From contig RSEE01000124.1 in NCBI GenBank assembly GCA_003971905.1, positions 1 through 64,000 on the forward strand: a stretch of DNA of 64,000 bases. The letters run 5' to 3'. This document shows, piece after piece, positions 1,811-34,576 of the stretch. The stretch's first letter is position 1. Each line of letters begins with the position of its first letter. Source of the DNA: Moniliella sp. 'wahieum' (taxonomy: Eukaryota). The position numbers and the translations under genes are program-made. The notes below the pieces were generated by a model. That model had not been told where the DNA came from and made no database searches. It saw only the letters and a list, made by a program, of their open reading frames with translations.

Positions 1811-1906
1811 GCTAGGATGGGCCAATGGTAGAGCCGTCAGACTTAAGTGTGTACATTACGTACGCAAGGTCTCTGAAGGTTGTGGGTTCGAGTCCCATTT
1901 CTAGCA
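1811..1906 (+). tRNA. tRNA with anticodon UAA (nominally Leu), 23-nt intron 1848-1870, short variable loop
   Basis: Acceptor stem GCTAGGA/TTCTAGC plus A73; D arm GGC/GCC around CAATGGTAGA; anticodon stem TCAGA/TCTGA with CT-TAA-G, then an intron at the canonical 37/38 position; variable loop AGGTT; T arm GTGGG-TTCGAGT-CCCAT. Mature length 73 nt. Confidence 0.9.
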
Positions 1907-1910
1907 CTTA

Positions 1911-1916
1911 TTTTTT
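1911..1916 (+). terminator. RNA polymerase III T-run terminator of the tRNA gene
   Basis: TTTTTT begins 5 nt after the tRNA discriminator base. Confidence 0.75.
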
Positions 1917-2638: not shown

Positions 2639-5036
2639 ATGGCACCACCACTTCGCTCAATCTCACTCACGCACCACGCCTTCTATACCCTGGGCGATGC
2701 AGTCGACTCGCGCTCCATGTTCCTCGCTTCCGACGACGCCGAGGTGGCGTCAACAGCGATAGGATCGCCCCAACCCAGCAAGCAAGGCAAATCGCTTCCC
2801 GAGAAGGAGACCCATTGGCTGCAGATGGAAAAGGAAGAAGCTATCCCGCCCAACAATATGTTTGCCGTCTTCTCTGCTTTGATGCTATGTGTTTTTGCTG
2901 CCGCTTTGGACCAGTCTGTCGTGGCCCCTGCCCTGCCGACCATTGCAGCTGATCTGCATGCCACGGCTGCGGGCTACTCGTATGTCTCTTCTCCTTGGGC
3001 TCTGTTCCTCTTGGTTTGGGGTTGTGGTTGTAACTAACATGATACTTTGCCTCTCTGCCAAGCTGGGTGGCCACGTCGTACATGCTGGCTACCACAACAT
3101 TAAACCCCATGTATGGCCGTTTGAGCGACATGGTGGGCCGCAAACCGCTCATGTATGGCGGCGTAGGCTTGTTCTTGATTGGAAGTGCTCTGGCAGGTAC
3201 GGCGCAGAACATCAACTGGCTCATTGTCGCTCGTGCCGTCCAAGGTCTGGGAGGAGGGGCGATCTCCAGTCTTTCCCAGATCATCCTGTCCGATATCACG
3301 ACGCTGGAAGAGCGGGGCAAGTATTCAGGCTGGATCGGAGCATGCTGGGGGGTGGCTAGTGTGGCAGGGCCGTTACTTGGAGGTGCGTTAACTACATGGG
3401 CAAGCTGGCGCTGGTGTTTCTATATCAATGTGCCCATTTGTGGCATTGCCCAAGTCCTGCTCGTCTTTTGCCTTCATCTCAACCCCAAACCGACAATGCC
3501 GCTGCGACAGCTGTTGCGTGAGTTTGATTTTCTCGGTCTCTTTCTCATCAGCGGCGGTGCGGTCCTCTTCCTTATCGGGTTTTCCACGGCAGAGACGAAT
3601 GGCTGGGAAGCTACCGAGACGATTGCAACAATCGTCGCAGGCGGCGGGCTAATGATCATCTTTGGCTTTTGGAACGCAAAGACAACGCGACAACCCATTG
3701 TCGCTCGTCGCCTCTTCCACACCCGCACTACCCTTCTCGTGCTGTTGCAAGTGGTCATGCACGGCATCACCTTTATCAACGTGACCTACTACCTTCCCAA
3801 CTTTTACCAGGTCGTGACGGGCGCGAATGCGCTCATGTCGGGCGTCTATGCTCTTCCCTACTTGGTCTGCTCCTCCTTCGTCTCAGCTGGGGCCGGGTAC
3901 GCAATTACCAAGGCACGAGCGTACCGGTTCATGTTGTGGATCGGATTTGGTTTCATGACGGTGGGATTTGCTCTGATGTGCATTCTGACTTCCAAGACAA
4001 GCCGGGTGCTGCAAGAGGTGTTTCCTGCTATCCTGGGCATTGGGGTGGGATGTTTGTACCAGACCCCCATCATTGCCCTGTCGGCTGCAATGCCGGTCGC
4101 TGAAATTGGCTCGACACTTGCAACCATGTTCTTTGTGCGGGAGCTGTCGACGACAATGGGCATTGCGATTGGTGGTGCGCTTCTCAACTCGGATTGGACT
4201 CGACGGGCCAAGAAAATTGCTGGTTTGCCAGCCGACGCTCCGGCCAAAGTCTTATCGGATGTCCACTACCTCCGCACCTTGCAGCCCCCCGAACTGTCCC
4301 AGCAAGCTCAGTACGAGTATAGTCTGGCGGTGCGGCTGATCTGGATTGTCGATACACCTCTGGCTGCGATTGGGCTGGTGGCATGTGCGTTGGTCAAGGG
4401 CTATAGCCTTCGCAGGGGGGTAGCAAAAGAGGAACCCGCAACGGATGATGGGCAAGAGATGCGCCCGATAACAGAGAAGAATGCAGAAGGCGGCACGTCT
4501 TCTGTCTTCCCCCCTCATCAACCTCCGGAAGGAGCTGTTGCCATCCCAATTACGACCAACGACGATAATGCAGTGGACACTGATTATAGGGTATCCTCAC
4601 CATCCCAACCGCACCTCGTCCCTCCCCATGACGAGGAAACAAGGTCCCCTACACCCTACACACCCTGCACACCTGAGCAGGGGTACTACACCTTGTTTGA
4701 CGAGGGGCCCTTGCCCACCCCTACCCACCCCAAAGCGTCCTGGGAACCATGGCAATCCTGGTCGCCCGATCTAGCCGCTTCTGCCAACAACCCCGCCAGT
4801 CCGGAACCGCAGATGTACTGGGAGCCTGCTACGCCCAACGACCCAGTGGGTACCAGCAGGCCCAACCGCATTCGGGTCGTGCGCCTACCATTTATGGCTC
4901 GCCTGGCTACGGTTCACCGTCGTATGCTTCGTCCCCTCAAACGCTGCCCACGATCCCCAACTTGCCTCACTCGTATGCCCACGGCATGGATATGGATTCG
5001 ATCGATCTGGGCAAGGCCAGTACCAAGCCGCAGTGA
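2639..5036 (+). CDS. MFS drug:H+ antiporter, DHA2 (14-TM) type
   Basis: [15 protein letters not shown], motif [41 protein letters not shown]. Intron 2980-3062 (GTATGT..CTAAC..CCAAG). The Pro/Ser-rich tail has a probable frameshift near 4830, so the stop is at 5036 or 5049. Confidence 0.92.
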
Positions 5037-26287: not shown

Positions 26288-26779
26288 GCCGAGTGGCGCT
26301 CCCTGGGGGGTGGGGGGGTACGCTGCCTTCGCTGGTCCACTTGTTCTGTTATCTTGTTTCCAGCAGCTAATAGCTACGATGGCTGTGTTTGTTCCTTGTT
26401 GTTAATTTGTTTTGGCTGAGGTCCTTGCGGCCTGAGGGCCTGAGGGTGGGGTGAGCGGGCCAGACCTCTTCCTATGTGCTATGTGACCGCCATCTCTACG
26501 CTCCCGTCGGCCAGCGACAAGAGGGCGGGGGGTACTCGTAGTGGGCAGCGCGTAGGACGCGAGGCGAGCCATGCACGGTGCCCTGCCATGGCCCATCAGC
26601 ACATCTGCGGGGCTCCTCCACGCTTCAATATCACACTCCTGTTTTTGAAATGTAGTCACCTGCCTCGCTGCCTCGATGTTCATTCATAGTTTCAACCGCC
26701 TGGGTTCGGTGCATCCAATTTTTTTGGCCGGCCTGTTTTCTTGGACGCCTTCGCTGTTCCCACCCCCCACACCACCGCC

Positions 26780-29700
26780 ATGGCCAAACCAGCGGCCACC
26801 GCGCCGCCCAAACCAGCGGCCAAGGGCTCGTCCAAGCGATCTCGTCCGATGCGTGGCAAAAAACGCTCCTCCGCCGCTGCCGCCCCCGCCGCTGCTGCCA
26901 AGGCCCCCCACAAGCCCCCTCACAAGGCCAAGTCCGTTCCAAACAAGCCACACAAGCCCGCTGCGCCCACCACGGCCGCTCAGCTGCTCGCTGGCCTCAC
27001 GTCCGGCGACTTTCCTCGTGGTGGCGGCTCCGTCTTGACGCCTGCTGAGTACCGCGACACGCTGCAGACCGCCCGTGCCGATGCGGCCGAGACGACAGTG
27101 GCAGCGGACGAGGCTGTCGTGTCGGGCGGCAAAAAACGCCGCCACCGTGCCCGTGACGGCGGCGACGACGATGAGGGTCCCTTCCACGAGGGCCGCTCGC
27201 GCAAGCGCAGGACCGAGGCTCCCCGTGATGGTGGCGCCCGGATCGAACATCTTAACTACAAAGTACGTCCCCACCCACGTTTTTTTTTCTAGTTTCCCCG
27301 TTGGCTCTACTTTTGTGCTGTGCGCTGACCTGGCTCCCCTGTGCAGCGCATTACCCCGGGCACCAAGTTGCTGGGCACCATCCTGGCTGTCCATCCCCTG
27401 GCCCTCATTATCTCTCTCCCGGACGGTCTTCTGGGCCATGTACCCATCACCAACATCAGTTCCCGCTTCACTGCCCACCTGCGCAACGCGACTGACGACA
27501 GCGACTCGGACGACGACTCAGAGTCGGAGTCAGAAGAGGAGGAGGAAGACGATGAGGAGGGGGGGGAAAAGACCGTATCCAATGCCCGCAAGAACAAAAT
27601 TACCCAACTGGGCCAACTGTTCCATCCAGGCCAAACGGTTTTGGTCGCGGTGGAGGCGAGCTATGCCCCAAACGATGTGCCAACACGCAAGAGCAGTGTC
27701 GCCACTGGCGCTGCCGGGCGGGAAGAGTACGACTTTGAAGCGCGCCGGGCTGTGCTGAGCCTCGACCCGGCCCTGGTCAATGCCGAGGTGGACGCGTCGG
27801 ATTTGCACGCGGGGCCTGTTGCCCGTTGCCATCTCGGCCAAGGAAGACAATGGCTGGGCAGTGGAGACAGGGGTGAAGGGCATCAAGGGATTCCTTCCGT
27901 TTGCTGGCACGGAAAAATGGGGTCCGGCCCCCGATTCGCTTCCGATCGGATCGGTCCACTTGGTTGCCATCCAATCCATCCAGGCGGGCTCGCTTGCTTT
28001 GGTTCGCCTTGGGCCCCACTCGGCCTTGACGGCCGCCACGATCAGCGCCAGCATGGCTCCCCGGATCGAGGGCCTTCTTCCCGGCACTCGAATTCGTACC
28101 TTGGTCGCTGGCACCTCGCCGGCAGGCATTGCAGTCAAGCTATGGGGTCTGTTTGATGCCACCGTCCCTGCCGTTCATCTGCCCAACAGCCCCGAGAGCT
28201 ACACCCCCGGCACGCACCTGGACGCGCGTGTGCTGGGTGCAGACGCCTCGGGCCCGAATCGATGTGTCGGGGGTGTCGCTGGGGGACGAAGAGGAGGACG
28301 CAGAGAAAGATGCCGAGGCGCCAGGCCAAGCCCAGGATCGTAAGATTGGCATGTCTGCCATCCCGCATGTGCTCCAGCTTGAGGCGCCTGCCGATCTGGC
28401 ACTGGCCTTGCCCGTCGGCGTCTTGGTCGACGCCACGGTCACGGCCATCAACCCGAGCTGGGGGATCACCCTCGCGCTTCGTCCTCAAGGCACCGGGACA
28501 GTGACGCCCGTACCGGGCTTTTCCCATATTTCCCATGTCGACGACCAGCATCTGGTCCGCTTGGACGAGAACAAGTACGGCGTTGGCTCGACCCATCTGG
28601 CGCGCGTCATTCGTCACGCGCTAACGGACCAGGTGGTGGAAGTTTCCCTCGCTCCGCGCGTCCTCGACAGAAAGTACTTGCGCGTCGCCGACATCCCCGT
28701 GGGCGTGGTGCTCAAGGGCACCGTTAAGAAGATCTCTGAAGACGCAATGTTTGTTGACTTTGACGGGCCAGTGGATGGGATTGTGTTCCCGATGCACTAT
28801 TCGGACGTGGCACTGAAAAAGCCCGAGCGCAAGTACCCCGTTGGGTCCAAGGTCACTGCCCGTGTCATCTTTGTCAATCCCACCCGCAACCGGGTCGTCT
28901 TGAGTCTGAAACGATCGATTGTGCGTGCCGAACTACCTATTCCGTCGAACCTCGATGAAGTGCGCCCTGGCGAGATTACGCTTGCCACCGTCAGCCGTAA
29001 GTTGGACAAGGGGGGGCTGCTCGTCGACTTTTTCCAGACCTTGCGCGCATTTGTACCGCGTACCGAGATTGCAGCAACCGCCACGCCCCCACGGTGCAGA
29101 TTGGCCAGACGGTACAGGTGCGCGTGATGCGGGTCGACGATGACCAACGCCGCATCGTCGCCTCCATTCGCCAAGCCTTGCCTTCCTACTTGGCCCAACA
29201 AGGTGCCTCGTCCGTACGGGATGGAACGCGGGTCGAGGGCACGGTGGGTCGGTGCAGAACGATGTGGCAACGCTTACGCTTCCCCTCACCCGGGCGCCAA
29301 GGCGGTCTTGTCGCTCAACGCGCTGGCCCAGGCTCGTTCGCGCGAGTCGGGTACGACGGTGACGGTGGAGCAGTTGGATGTGGAGCAGGGCTCCAAGCTG
29401 ACCGATTTGATCGTCACGGGGCGAAGCAAGGAGAAGGGTTGTTGATCGTCGTTCCCTCCTCAGATACCTCGGCCGTGGCAGCTCGGGCTCTGTCGGGGTT
29501 GGTGCCCGATATGATTCTGGAAGGCACGGTCACCGGCACAAGGAGCCCACGGCGGCTACCGTGTCTTTTGGGCCCGGCCGCTCCGGCCGGTTGCACTTGC
29601 TCGACTGTGTTGATCGGGACGGTTTGCAGGGCGCCAAGCTTCCCGAGGTGGGGAGTACGGTGCAGTGTGTGGTGCTGCGGACCAGCAAAAATGGCGGTAG

Positions 29701-31745
29701 GGCCGATGTGTCTTCTGCGCCCATGGCGCTGGCCGCCGCGCAGGCTACGCTGGCCACCGAGGTGCAGGATGGTGCTACGGGGGGGCGTACGAGGCGGTGA
29801 ACCGTGCGGTTCTTGACTCGGGGGCCGACGTGAAGGTTGGGGACAAGGTGGTCGGGGTAGTGCGAGGCATTGCGTCTCATGCCGGTCTGTTATCGACATT
29901 GCCCGCCACTTGACTGGACGGGCGCTCATCTCGCAACTGTTTGATACCTTTGTCCAAGAGTGGACGAGCAAGTTCGAGATTGGCCAGGTGGTCTCTCCCA
30001 CCGTGACCAAGATGACCGGCACTGGGGAAAATGTCAAGGTGGAGTTGAGTCTCAAGAGTGTGGCGCCTGTCCAGGCCGCTACCAAACGGGCTCCAACACT
30101 CCGTTTTGCGGATTTGGCCGTCGGTCAGGCCCGGCCCGGGTTCGTGCGCAACACGACCGACTTTGGCGTTTTTGTCCAACTGGAAGGATCCAACTTGGCA
30201 GGTCTGGCCCACAAGTCTGCCCTGGCCGACCCACCAACCAAGATCGAAGCTGCGCTCCAAGCTTACTCGGTCGGCGACCGTGTCGTGGCCAAGATTATCA
30301 AGCTAGACCCTGCTAACAAGAAGATCAGCCTGGGCCTCAAGCGCAGCTTGTTCACCACTGAGGAGCTCGACCAGCTCGTCAAGGACGCCGAGCCAGACGA
30401 GCAGCCGAGCGCCAAGGCGGGATCGAGCTCGGACGATGGCGAGGCGATGCCTTTGGTTCGGACGAGGAGTCGTCGGAGGATGAAGACAGCGACAGCGACA
30501 GCGGCAGCGAGGGGGACGACGAGTCGGACGATCTTCGGATGAACCAGTTTGATGGTGACTCGGACTCTGAGGAGGAGGATTCCGAGATGGACTCGGACGA
30601 GGAGATGGAGGTGGACGACGAGCCGGCTCCCAAGCATCAACTCGAACTGTCCGGTGGCTACAGCTGGTCGGGCAATGCAGCGGATGTGTCGGACTCGGAC
30701 GAGGCTGGGTCCGAGGAGGAATCGGATGAGTCGGACAACGAGGCAAGTGCCTCCAAGAAGAAGACGGCCAAGGCTCCTGTGCAGGATGTGACGGGGGCGC
30801 TAGCAACGAAGGCACCCGAGTCGGCTGCCGACTTTGAGCGCTTGCTGCTTGGTTCGCCTAACTCGTCGTTGCTTTGGATCCGCTTCATGTCCTTCTATCT
30901 CGCCATGGGTGATGTGGAACGTGCGCGAGCGGTGGCCGAGCGGGCGTTGACGATCATCAACTTCCGCGAGGAGACGGAGCGGCTGAACGTTTGGCTTGCG
31001 CGCTTGAACTTGGAAAATGCGTTTGGCGCAGAGGATGGGACGACGTTTGACGCTGCACTGGCTGAGGCGAGCAAGAACAACGATGCCAAGACGGTGGCAC
31101 TACGGGCCATTGACATGCTCAAGCGCTCGGGTAAGGTGGAGCGGGCTCTGGAGCTGTGGCAGCGGACGGCACGCAAGTTTAGCCAGTCGGCCAAGGTGTG
31201 GGTTGCCTACTACACCTTTCCTCGAGACGGATAATGCGTCCAAAGCGCGGGAGGTGGCCGCGCGCTGCTGCAGAGCCTGCCAAAACGAAAGCATGTCAAA
31301 GTTCTGTTGGGCTATGCTCTGACCGAGTACCGCACCCGGCCAGGGGGCGATACAGAGCGCGGGCGGGTGCTGTTTGAGGGCCTGGTGGATTCCCACCCAC
31401 AGCGGCTGGACGTATGGATGCAGTACCTGGACCAGGAGGAGAAGGTGGTGCGCACTGCTGGCGACGCCGAGGGCGGGGCGCAGCACGGTGCGCTCACTGT
31501 TCGAACGGCTGCTGGCACGCAAGCTGTCCAGCAAAAAGGCACGCTCGGTGCTGAAGAAATGGCTGTCGTTTGAGAAGAGGCACGGCACGGCCGCCGACCA
31601 GCAGGCGGTGCTGCAGCGGGCGCGCGACTTTGTCGCTGCCCAGCAGGCCAAGGCAGCTCCTGCCACCGAAGGGCCCGAGTCGCATTCGGACTCGGACTCG
31701 GACTCGGACTCGGCGACGAAGAGTAGAGGCAGGAACCTAGCATGA
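26780..31745 (+). CDS. RRP5: rRNA biogenesis protein Rrp5 (S1 repeats plus C-terminal HAT/TPR)
   Basis: DFPRGGGSVLTPAEY, RIEHLNYK|RITPGTKLLG..LIISLPDGLLGHVPITNIS, many S1 repeats, PESAADFERLLLGSPNSSLLWIRFMSF, ERLNVWLARLNLEN, ERGRVLFEGLV. Intron 27263-27346; multiple frameshifts. Confidence 0.95.
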
Positions 31746-33135: not shown

Positions 33136-34576
33136 ATGGTTGCCCCCAACGAGCCCGAGTTCCAGCAAGCCTACGACGAGCTTGTCTCCTGCCTCAAGGA
33201 CTCGACCCTCTTCCAAAAGCGCCCTGAACTCGAGCGCATCCTCAAGGTTGTCTCCATCCCCGAGCGCCTGATTCAGTTCCGTGTCGCCTGGGAGAACGAC
33301 AAGGGCGAGATTGAGGTCAACAATGGCTTCCGTGTCCAGTTCAACTCGGCTCTCGGGCCCTACAAGGGCGGTCTCCGCTTCCACCCGACTGTGACCTTGT
33401 CGGTGCTCAAGTTCCTCGGCTTTGAGCAGGTGCGTCTTTCTCTTTCCCTTGTAATCCGCCTGCCTTGATGACGTCCATTTGTACGGGGTTACTGATCGTT
33501 GCCTGTCTGAACTGCAGATCTTCAAGAATGCGCTTACTGGCCTCAACATGGGCGGCGGCAAGGGCGGTGCCGACTTTGACCCCAAGGGCCGCTCGCCTGC
33601 TGAGATTCGTCGTTTCTGCCAGGCCTTTATGAGTGAGCTTTGGCGCCACATTGGTGCTGACACGGATGTGCCCGCGGGCGACATCAATGTGGGCGGGACC
33701 GAGGTGGGCTACCTCTTTGGCCAGTACAAGAAGTTGGCCAACAAGTGGGAGGGCGTCTTGACTGGCAAGGGCCTCAGCTGGGGTGGCTCCCTCATCCGCC
33801 CCGAGGCCACTGGCTACGGTGTGATCTACTATGTGGAGAAGATGATCGAGACAGCTACGGGCGGCAAGGAGTCGTTCAAGGGCAAAAAGGTGCTTGTGTC
33901 GGGCAGTGGCAATGTGGCTCAGTACGCTGCGCTCAAGGCGATCGAGTTGGGGGCGACGGTGCTGTCACTGTCGGACTCGACCGGCTCGTACATTGCCAAG
34001 TCGGCCGACAAGGGCTTCACTGCCGAGGAGGTGCTCAAGGTGCAGCAGCTCAAGGCCCAGCGCAAGGGTCTCGTTGCGCTCGAGTCGGACCTGTCGAACT
34101 TTGTGTGGCATGAGGGCAAGCGGCCCTGGACCCTGGTGGAGAAGGTGGACATTGCGCTGCCCTGCGCGACGCAGAATGAGGTGAGCGGACCCGAGGCCGA
34201 GTACTTGGTCAAGGCCGGCTGCAAGTACATTGCCGAGGGCTCCAACATGGGCTCCACTGCCGAAGCGATTCACGTGTACGAGACCAACCGGTCCAAGGCC
34301 GGCATCTGGTACGGCCCGGGCAAGGCTGCCAACTCGGGCGGTGTGGCCGTGTCAGGCTTGGAGATGGCGCAGAACTCGCAGCGCGAGAGGTGGACGTCGG
34401 AGGAGGTGGACGCGCGTCTGAAGAACATCATGTCCGAGTGCTTTGACAAGTGCTACGCCACGTCGCAGGAGTACGCGCTGACCAAGGAGGAGCTTCCTTC
34501 CCTTGTCCGCGGCGCCAACCTGCACGGAGCCATCCTCGTCTTTGACGCTATGATTGCCCATGGTGACTTCTACTAA
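33136..34576 (+). CDS. GDH1: NADP-specific glutamate dehydrogenase
   Basis: [102 protein letters not shown]. Intron 33430-33517; reading frame intact. Confidence 0.98.

Follow-up and report, generated by a model that had tools for sequence, protein, structure and literature searches.

A tRNA gene that pairs a leucine anticodon with a short variable loop lies near the start of a 64,000-nucleotide stretch of Moniliella sp. 'wahieum' DNA (contig RSEE01000124.1, positions 1 to 64,000; hereafter, the window). The gene occupies 1811-1906 of the forward strand, to which all coordinates below refer, and carries the anticodon UAA, a 23-nt intron, and, where a long arm would be expected, a class I variable loop of only 5 nt. 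Its sequence suggests a tRNA-Leu(UAA) of Leu(UAA) origin, whose long arm was swapped for a class I loop and which would still be leucylated, an interpretation to which we give an even chance. The wider claim, that a eukaryotic cytoplasm uses an arm-less leucine tRNA and that this gene supplies a working, leucylated decoder of UUA and UUG, possibly the genome's only one, may well hold, and we place it just short of even. A sequence-only reading of this DNA had put forward an arm-less tRNA-Leu as one of two possibilities; it has become the leading interpretation through the Leu(UAA)-type acceptor stem, A73, anticodon loop, type of D stem, and T stem described below.

The tRNA gene at 1811-1906

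The segment 1811-1906 matches the Rfam tRNA family (RF00005) along the full model (positions 1-71) with 50.6 bits and an E-value of 6.7e-08, above the gathering score of 29 that marks membership, and it is the sole Rfam match in the 64-kb window. When introns are allowed, ARAGORN places a tRNA-Leu(taa) at 1811-1907, its intron being 23 nt long, i(39,23), and the Rfam alignment carries a 26-nt insert at the intron region; at default settings, ARAGORN calls no tRNA in the window. The Rfam score is normal for an intron-bearing gene, because a control, the intron-bearing tRNA-Arg(UCU) of metagenome contig L075, scores 54.8 bits; intronless tRNA-Arg(UCU) genes score 60-70 bits. Together, these results confirm that 1811-1906 is a real intron-bearing tRNA gene.

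The 5' exon (1811-1847), as delimited by Rfam, ARAGORN with introns allowed, and the sequence itself, is composed of the 5' strand of the acceptor stem (GCTAGGA), U8 and G9, the D arm, G26, the 5' strand of the anticodon stem, and residues C32 to G37. The acceptor stem (1811-1817 with 1899-1905) has 7 pairs, GCTAGGA with TTCTAGC, including G6.U67. Within the D stem, G10-C25, G11-C24, and C12-G23 pair and C13.A22 is unpaired; an alternative arrangement gives 4 bp and a bulged A. G26 is followed by the anticodon stem, UCAGA/UCUGA, and by the loop residues C32 U33 U34 A35 A36 G37 at 1842-1847. The sequence, Rfam, and ARAGORN all place the anticodon (U34 A35 A36) at 1844-1846; it reads UUA and probably UUG too. 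The 3' exon (1871-1906) begins with C38 (1871) and continues through the 3' strand of the anticodon stem, the variable loop, the T arm (GTGGG TTCGAGT CCCAT), and the 3' acceptor strand TTCTAGC to A73 (1906). In both the sequence and the Rfam alignment, the variable loop that replaces the long arm is AGGTT (A44 G45 G46 U47 U48, 1877-1881), and thus 5 nt instead of the more than 10 nt of a cytosolic tRNA-Leu. A15 and U48 are able to form a Levitt pair.

The 23-nt intron (1848-1870) sits at the canonical 37/38 site, in agreement with ARAGORN, and in predicted folds holds its own 7-bp hairpin, TGTGTAC/GTACGCA. The splicing geometry of nuclear pre-tRNAs has position 32 paired with the third-last intron base (-3). 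Here G1868, at intron position -3, could pair with C32 (1842), and A1867 and A1866 could pair with U33 and U34, so that both the intron site and the 32/-3 pairing are of the nuclear kind; the splice sites adjoin short helices. Five nucleotides past A73 is a run of six T residues (1911-1916), and such a run downstream of a tRNA gene is the terminator of RNA polymerase III. The internal promoter is represented by an A-box-like element, TGGGCCAATGG at 1818-1828, which departs once (G at position 11) from the consensus TRGYNNARNNG, and by a B box, GGTTCGAGTCC at 1885-1895, which matches RGTTCRANTCC perfectly; both consensus sequences are printed in PMC11028032.

With no broken helix, and with the A and B boxes, the T run, and the splice-site geometry in place, the gene looks competent. 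The sequence-only reading had likewise listed a cloverleaf with TAA, G37, C38, A73, an A15/U48 pair, a hairpin-forming intron at 37/38, and a T6 terminator, and had counted only 5 nt, AGGTT, in the variable region; each of these is seen in the sequence. The minimum-free-energy fold is a rod of -26.6 kcal/mol, compared with -20.0 to -20.5 kcal/mol for the cloverleaf, a result that we regard as uninformative, since thermodynamic folding frequently misses the tRNA cloverleaf. No further copy of the flanks, such as a repeat or an origin like that of a short interspersed element would leave, is present within the window, and no open reading frame (ORF) of useful length overlaps the gene. Matches to the complement of the 3' end plus CCA, such as a retroelement primer-binding site would give, were limited to the gene itself and a chance-level set (4, with 1.44 expected).

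Leucine-type ends and a class I core

Comparison tRNAs were gathered with a 31-nt core pattern that consists of G26, the anticodon stem with C32-U33, the 3' stem strand, AGGTT, and T-arm positions 51-63, and that leaves the anticodon free. The pattern matches 109 loci in a metagenome collection, on which ARAGORN finds 231 tRNAs, of which 107 match the pattern and 123 are neighbours (101 unique). Among these unselected neighbours, the Leu(UAA) genes are closest to the window tRNA (at most 57 of 73 positions identical, median 54), followed by Leu(CAA) with 55, Lys with 52, and unselected Arg with 51-52. In locus L045, a eukaryote-type long-arm Leu(UAA) gene lies beside a pattern match and is itself unselected. 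Of the 68 positions that can be compared, it shares 51 with the window tRNA, gaps not being needed (32/43 over positions 1-43 and 19/25 over 49-73), and its D arm has the same length. At the 42 positions that are free in the core pattern, it matches 29; the best Arg(UCU) gene matches 20.

The acceptor stem separates the isotypes more sharply. The window tRNA has the leucine-type pairs A4-U69 and G5-C68, a combination that 23 of the 31 unique Leu tRNAs carry and that is missing from all 122 unique non-Leu tRNAs (4 were unparsed), the 55 unique Arg tRNAs among them. A scan of viral contigs for the T stem, the 3' acceptor strand, and A73, which is blind to class and anticodon, points the same way. 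It yields 31 loci, and ARAGORN places a tRNA on the match in 30 of them: 24 Leu (20 UAA, 3 CAA, 1 UAG), 3 Thr, 1 Tyr, 1 Ser, and 1 unassigned, the single "Ser" call being a miscalled intron-bearing Leu(UAA). Four of the 26 unique sequences in this set share their first nine bases, GCTAGGATG, with the window gene, and each of the 4 is a long-arm Leu(UAA) gene. The 3' half of the window gene has no exact match in the viral contigs, which hold few if any fungal sequences. Another observation from the viral collection concerns L146, a giant-virus metagenome-assembled genome (MAG), where a long-arm Leu(UAA) gene with an intron after G37 is miscalled by ARAGORN as Ser(tga) with a 32-nt intron.

The core of the gene resembles arginine tRNAs. 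The anticodons of the 109 core-sharing loci are TCT (71), ACG (29), TCG (4), TTG (2), TTT (1), GCG (1), and CCT (1), so that 106 are arginine tRNAs, and the window gene has the core typical of the Arg(UCU) family. This arginine excess is partly built in, because the pattern held the 5-nt variable loop, which long-arm tRNAs are unable to match. An Arg(UCU) body with a rewritten anticodon loop was at first taken as the explanation of the gene and was dropped, since the query was biased and later comparisons showed the leucine-type ends. Nearest neighbours, used as a proxy for isotype, are split between Leu(UAA) and Arg(UCU).

Several features of these comparison loci deserve mention in their own right. 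The core-sharing Arg(UCU) genes (L002, L003, L006, L013, and others; L110-L122) often lie in dense clusters beside long-arm Leu(UAA), Leu(CAA), Lys, Ile, Gln, and Asn genes, and the viral collection assigns several such cluster contigs to giant-virus MAGs. On two low-GC contigs, L051 (about 215-300 of the reverse-complemented locus) and L101 (same region), an Arg(UCU) gene has, besides the usual 37/38 intron, a D arm interrupted by about 50 nt of extra sequence. The two D-arm inserts lie at different positions; with GTCAGT or GTAAGC at the start, TACTAAC inside, and CAG at the end, they resemble spliceosomal introns. Once the insert is taken out, the D arm is normal; both genes fall below the Rfam threshold.

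On this comparison, the window gene is a mosaic of leucine-type parts and a class I core. The leucine-type parts are the acceptor stem, U8 and G9, the 3-pair D stem with A22, G26, four of the five anticodon-stem pairs, the CUUAAG loop, the T stem, and A73. The class I core (A15-U48, U27-A43, AGGUU, and the T loop UUCGAGU) is identical to that of Arg(UCU) genes, and all 26 nt at positions 39-64 are the same as in Arg(UCU) genes such as those of L003 and L101. Relative to long-arm Leu(UAA) genes, the differences are concentrated where the core meets the variable region, at positions 15, 20a/21, 48, 59, and 60, and both helix changes are compensated. A single patch copied from an Arg(UCU) gene could account for 39-64 and would not account for A15 or U27, because both lie beyond the anticodon loop and the intron. 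Either origin needs about 13-16 changes, as counted against distant comparison genes. We lean toward a Leu(UAA) gene that lost its arm, perhaps through an Arg(UCU) patch, over an Arg-type gene that gained leucine ends, because no identity switch would then be needed.

The sequence-only reading had also proposed recruitment from another isotype by anticodon change. The inner core does prove to be that of Arg(UCU); the ends are not Arg-like, and a simple anticodon change is inadequate, since the gene departs from Arg(UCU) or Lys(UUU) at four positions, 35-38. A Lys(UUU) gene with a deletion is rejected, given these four loop differences and the occurrence of TTT in only 1 of the 109 core-sharing tRNAs, as is a Phe(GAA) origin, with GAA in 0 of the 109 and with G20 and G34 absent from the window gene.

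UUA codons, leucine identity, and alternative explanations

All 10 TTA codons in three window proteins, an MFS transporter and the middle and N-terminal ORFs of a HECT ligase, were tabulated against the aligned residues of homologues (120, 9, and 150 representatives, respectively). In the MFS transporter, codon 20 is Leu in 89 of 120 homologues, codon 111 (3373-3375) is Leu in 110 (Ile in 6, Val in 3, Ala in 1), and codon 404 is variable. Codon 116 (3388-3390) is Phe in 63, Leu in 54, and Val in 3, and Leu stands at this site in the two closest homologues (84% and 59% identity). Codons 111 and 116 are the two TTA codons, at 3373 and 3388, singled out by the sequence-only reading, which had suggested that the first fits Leu and that the second position often tolerates Phe. 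In the middle HECT ORF, codon 24 is variable (Leu in 1 of 9), codon 224 is Leu in 7 and Val in 2, and codon 259 is Leu in 5, Phe in 2, and Val in 2. In the N-terminal ORF, codon 81 is Leu in 68 and Met in 38 of 121 aligned sequences, codon 360 is Val in 50, Ile in 20, and Leu in 14 of 131, and codon 382 is Leu in 110 of 128. Thus, Leu is commonest at 6 of the 10 sites, one is split between Phe and Leu, one runs Val, Ile, Leu, and 2 are variable.

None of the 10 sites favours Arg or Lys. As far as these window codons show, UUA appears to mean leucine in the host, with no sign of reassignment; low-level ambiguity is beyond the reach of 10 codons. The suggestion that the tRNA carries some other amino acid, which would leave UUA ambiguous or reassigned, accordingly finds no support in the window. 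On the evidence of these codons, the organism needs a leucine-charged UAA tRNA, although this does not specify which gene supplies it.

The surroundings of the gene are those of a nuclear chromosome. Long ORFs in the window match Pfam families for an MFS transporter, V-ATPase subunit a, SAC3, a FYVE protein, CDC20, RRP5, glutamate dehydrogenase, and a HECT/TRIP12-type ligase, and the G+C content is 55-67%. Two of the proteins have their best named relatives, with 35-50% identity, in Violaceomyces, Ustilago, Pseudozyma, Kalmanozyma, and Tilletiaria; the closest MFS homologue has 84% identity and the next 59%. Judged from these relatives, the host is a basidiomycete near Ustilaginomycotina, in a poorly sampled lineage. 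The tRNA gene is nuclear, standing as it does among V-ATPase, RRP5, CDC20, and glutamate dehydrogenase genes and having a nuclear-type intron and a T-run terminator. Elsewhere in the window, the RRP5-like gene (26,600-31,300, forward strand) is covered by many overlapping ORFs in differing frames, a pattern that points to many short introns or to assembly errors that shift the frame. The glutamate dehydrogenase ORF (33455-34573, forward strand) has a third-position G+C of 0.82, compared with 0.5-0.75 in the other ORFs, and contains no TTA codon, as expected of a highly expressed gene.

In the proposed pathway, a nuclear, RNA-polymerase-III-type, intron-bearing Leu(UAA) gene would have had its long variable arm replaced by the 5-nt class I loop, and its inner part would have turned into a coherent core of class I type (A15-U48, U27-A43, G26/A44, G45 G46, and the T loop UUCGAGU). 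Transcription, directed by the A and B boxes, would end at the T6 run; the 23-nt intron would then be cut out at 37/38, followed by CCA addition and methylation of G37. Leucine identity would be carried by the acceptor pairs A4-U69 and G5-C68, A73, G37 beside UAA, and G18 G19. Leucyl-tRNA synthetase (LeuRS) would charge the tRNA via A73, G37, and the acceptor pairs, and UUA, as well as UUG, would then be read as leucine.

In yeast, A73, m1G37, G18, and psi55 contribute strongly to leucylation, and G37U abolishes charging (PMC9976931, PMC3488233); all of these strong elements are present or possible in the window tRNA, which has its leucine anticodon at 1844-1846, G37 at 1847, and A73 at 1906. 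The sequence-only reading, which had invoked A73, A35, and G37 as the elements on which yeast LeuRS relies, is upheld for A73 and G37 and less so for A35, which matters in vitro but little in vivo (PMC9976931, PMC3488233). A4-U69 and G5-C68 are listed as identity elements of human LeuRS (PMC6614811, PMC11028032). Furthermore, the long arm is dispensable in some systems: minimal Escherichia coli substrates without the arm are still charged by LeuRS (PMC9976931), the short-looped human mitochondrial tRNA-Leu(UUR) is charged by LeuRS (PMC9976931), and Streptomyces type I tRNA-Leu is leucylated (PMC6614811). Arginylation has other determinants, namely C35 and U/G36 in yeast and A20 and C35 in other organisms, with m1G37 acting as an antideterminant for yeast arginyl-tRNA synthetase (PMC9976931). 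The window tRNA has A35, A36, and U20.

Several points weigh against a functional, leucylated tRNA of Leu(UAA) origin. PMC9976931 and PMC6614811 describe the cytosolic tRNA-Leu of eukaryotes as long-armed without exception. The identity elements listed for human LeuRS include the variable region (PMC11028032, PMC6614811), and the arm is called important for recognition (PMC3488233). The human set also includes C3-G70, which is U3-A70 in the window tRNA. The D arm is imperfect for class I, having either an unpaired C13.A22 with G instead of A before the stem or a bulged A, and the A box departs once from the consensus. None of the 109 core-sharing metagenomic tRNAs has the anticodon TAA, in a collection with few if any fungal genomes. 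A pattern for a short-loop tRNA with UAA and G37 has 0 matches in prokaryote genomes and 0 in viral contigs, a weak result given how little fungal sequence, if any, these sets contain. The tRNAs used for comparison derive from contigs of giant-virus and marine origin, none of them fungal and many closely related to one another. In the part of the literature that was searched, no eukaryote is reported to have a functional cytosolic tRNA-Leu without the arm; the only cases that emerged were the tRNAscan-SE 2 examples.

The foremost alternative, which we regard as unlikely though a serious contender, is a dead or idle paralogue: a Leu(UAA) copy that lost its arm by deletion or through a class I patch, for example from Arg(UCU), and that stays uncharged or is degraded while a separate long-arm gene does the work. 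The uniform long arm of the cytosolic tRNA-Leu species described in PMC9976931 and PMC6614811 is what this explanation expects. So is the usual verdict on genes whose anticodon and body disagree, which are mostly judged non-functional, such as human Leu-CAA-5-1 with its very low reads and the Ser-UGA/Thr-body repeats of Serpula (PMC8450103). A copied patch would also leave just the identity to Arg(UCU) over the 26 nt of positions 39-64, and the D-arm irregularity, the single A-box departure, and the lack of an orthologue in the metagenome, prokaryote, and viral collections (with few if any fungal genomes) fit as well. However, one patch leaves unexplained A15, whose partner is U48, and U27, whose partner is A43, and both of these are compensated. 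Moreover, the helices are unbroken, the promoter boxes, terminator, and splice-site geometry are intact, and the flanks are unrepeated within the window. Sequence error, whether in assembly or base calling, is a far more distant prospect as the source of the odd anticodon loop or the missing arm. The loop differs from Lys(UUU) and Arg(UCU) at four positions rather than by a single indel, and an error would hardly drop an arm of about 10 nt and yet leave a perfect class I loop and a matched A15-U48.

The remaining alternatives accept an expressed tRNA and differ from a leucylated Leu(UAA) descendant in its origin or its amino acid. It is improbable, in our estimate, that an Arg(UCU)-type duplicate was remoulded to leucine through positions 35-38 and the acceptor stem, which would give the same present function by another route. 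The arginine identity of 106 of 109 tRNAs sharing the 31-nt core suggests such a parent, as do a D loop, AAUGGUA, that is the same as in the intron-bearing Arg(UCU) genes of L051 and L101, and the frequency of A73 in Arg(UCU) genes (52/71). Identity shifts of this alloacceptor kind have been recorded in eukaryotes (31 of 75, PMC3923123). Against this, the core pattern contained the short loop and so partly built in the excess, the best Arg gene matches 20 of the 42 free positions compared with 29 for Leu(UAA), and the acceptor stem is that of Leu(UAA) genes, with A4-U69/G5-C68 in 0 of 55 unique Arg tRNAs. Four loop changes would also be required, and even two-base anticodon shifts are rare (4/75, PMC3923123). 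Very improbable is a tRNA charged with a different amino acid, most plausibly phenylalanine, which would make UUA and UUG ambiguous. A35, A36, and A73 are among the elements listed for phenylalanyl-tRNA synthetase in PMC11028032, and MFS codon 116 is Phe in 63 of 120 homologues. Yet G20 and G34, which that enzyme uses, are absent, position 37 is G where PMC11028032 lists A37, and the acceptor stem is of the leucine kind. Codon 116 aligns with Leu in the two closest MFS homologues, and the other informative TTA sites are dominated by Leu, with no Phe majority.

Relation to known tRNAs

The long arm has been treated as a fixed trait of cytosolic tRNA-Leu, used both by eukaryotic LeuRS and by the enzymes that reject tRNA-Leu. 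Short-arm leucine tRNAs are known from organelles, bacteria, and phages, and nuclear genes with mismatched anticodon and body are known as well; the window gene would be new if it works in a eukaryotic cytoplasm. To our knowledge, the change from class II to class I is known only from animal mitochondria, from tRNA-Tyr outside bacteria, and from some bacteria and phages. If the proposed reading is correct, the gene represents such a transition in a nuclear tRNA family, and loss of the arm is possible outside organelles and bacteria. The LeuRS of this lineage would then recognise tRNA-Leu by A73, G37, and the acceptor stem alone, and the gene would provide a natural test case for the elements that a eukaryotic LeuRS needs. 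It would also show how a tertiary core is rebuilt after arm loss, as 15-48, 27-43, and 59-60 all differ. If the gene is instead dead, it is a clean example of a tRNA prediction that pipelines label Leu from the anticodon alone.

Long-arm Leu(UAA) genes (L045, L126, L141, L146, L147) share with the window gene the CUUAAG loop with G37, A73, the pairs A4-U69 and G5-C68, a 3-bp D stem with A22, G26, and the T stem GUGGG; GCTAGGA with U8 G9 is identical in four genes. They differ in having a variable region of about 13-15 nt, as opposed to 5 nt, and G15-C48 where the window gene has A15-U48. In addition, U27-A43 is flipped, T-loop positions 59-60 are GU in the window gene, and C38 stands in place of A38. 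The class I Arg(UCU) genes (L003, L048, L075, L101) have the same G26, anticodon stem, AGGUU, T loop, U8 G9, and A15-U48, a T stem identical except at position 65, and, in fungal-looking members, a 37/38 intron. Unlike them, the window gene differs in the loop at 35-38, with no C35 or U36, has 3 rather than 4 D-stem pairs, and has an acceptor stem that resembles that of none of 41 unique Arg(UCU) genes. A further short class I tRNA-like gene, with the loop region TTTTAAA, occurs at 354-425 of L003 (41.7 bits with Rfam) and in L024; ARAGORN calls it Leu(taa) in one locus and stop-reading (tta) in the other.

Human Leu-CAA-5-1 is, like the window gene, nuclear, with a leucine anticodon, no long arm, and a disagreement between anticodon and body (PMC8450103). 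However, it is a barely expressed derivative of tRNA-Met (PMC8450103), whereas the window gene has leucine-type ends and is not one change away from any class I tRNA. Animal mitochondrial tRNA-Leu(UUR) likewise has UAA, a short loop, A73 as a determinant, and charging by LeuRS without the arm, but it is organellar and served by a dedicated mitochondrial LeuRS (PMC9976931); the window gene is nuclear. The type I tRNA-Leu(CAA) of Streptomyces coelicolor and the short-arm tRNA-Leu of phages are short-looped and occur alongside long-arm ones in one compartment, and the S. coelicolor tRNA is leucylated by a single LeuRS (PMC6614811). It is bacterial and intronless, encodes its CCA, and is recognised through the LeuRS domain LSD and not through A73 (PMC6614811). 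Three phage short-arm tRNA-Leu genes in the viral scan have A37, in contrast to the G37 of the window gene, and a 75-nt short-loop tRNA with CAA and A37 on a 210-kb contig (L052) is of the same bacterial and phage type I kind. Thus, the type I tRNA-Leu and the window gene are alike in shape only, the latter being eukaryotic, with an intron, no encoded CCA, and G37.

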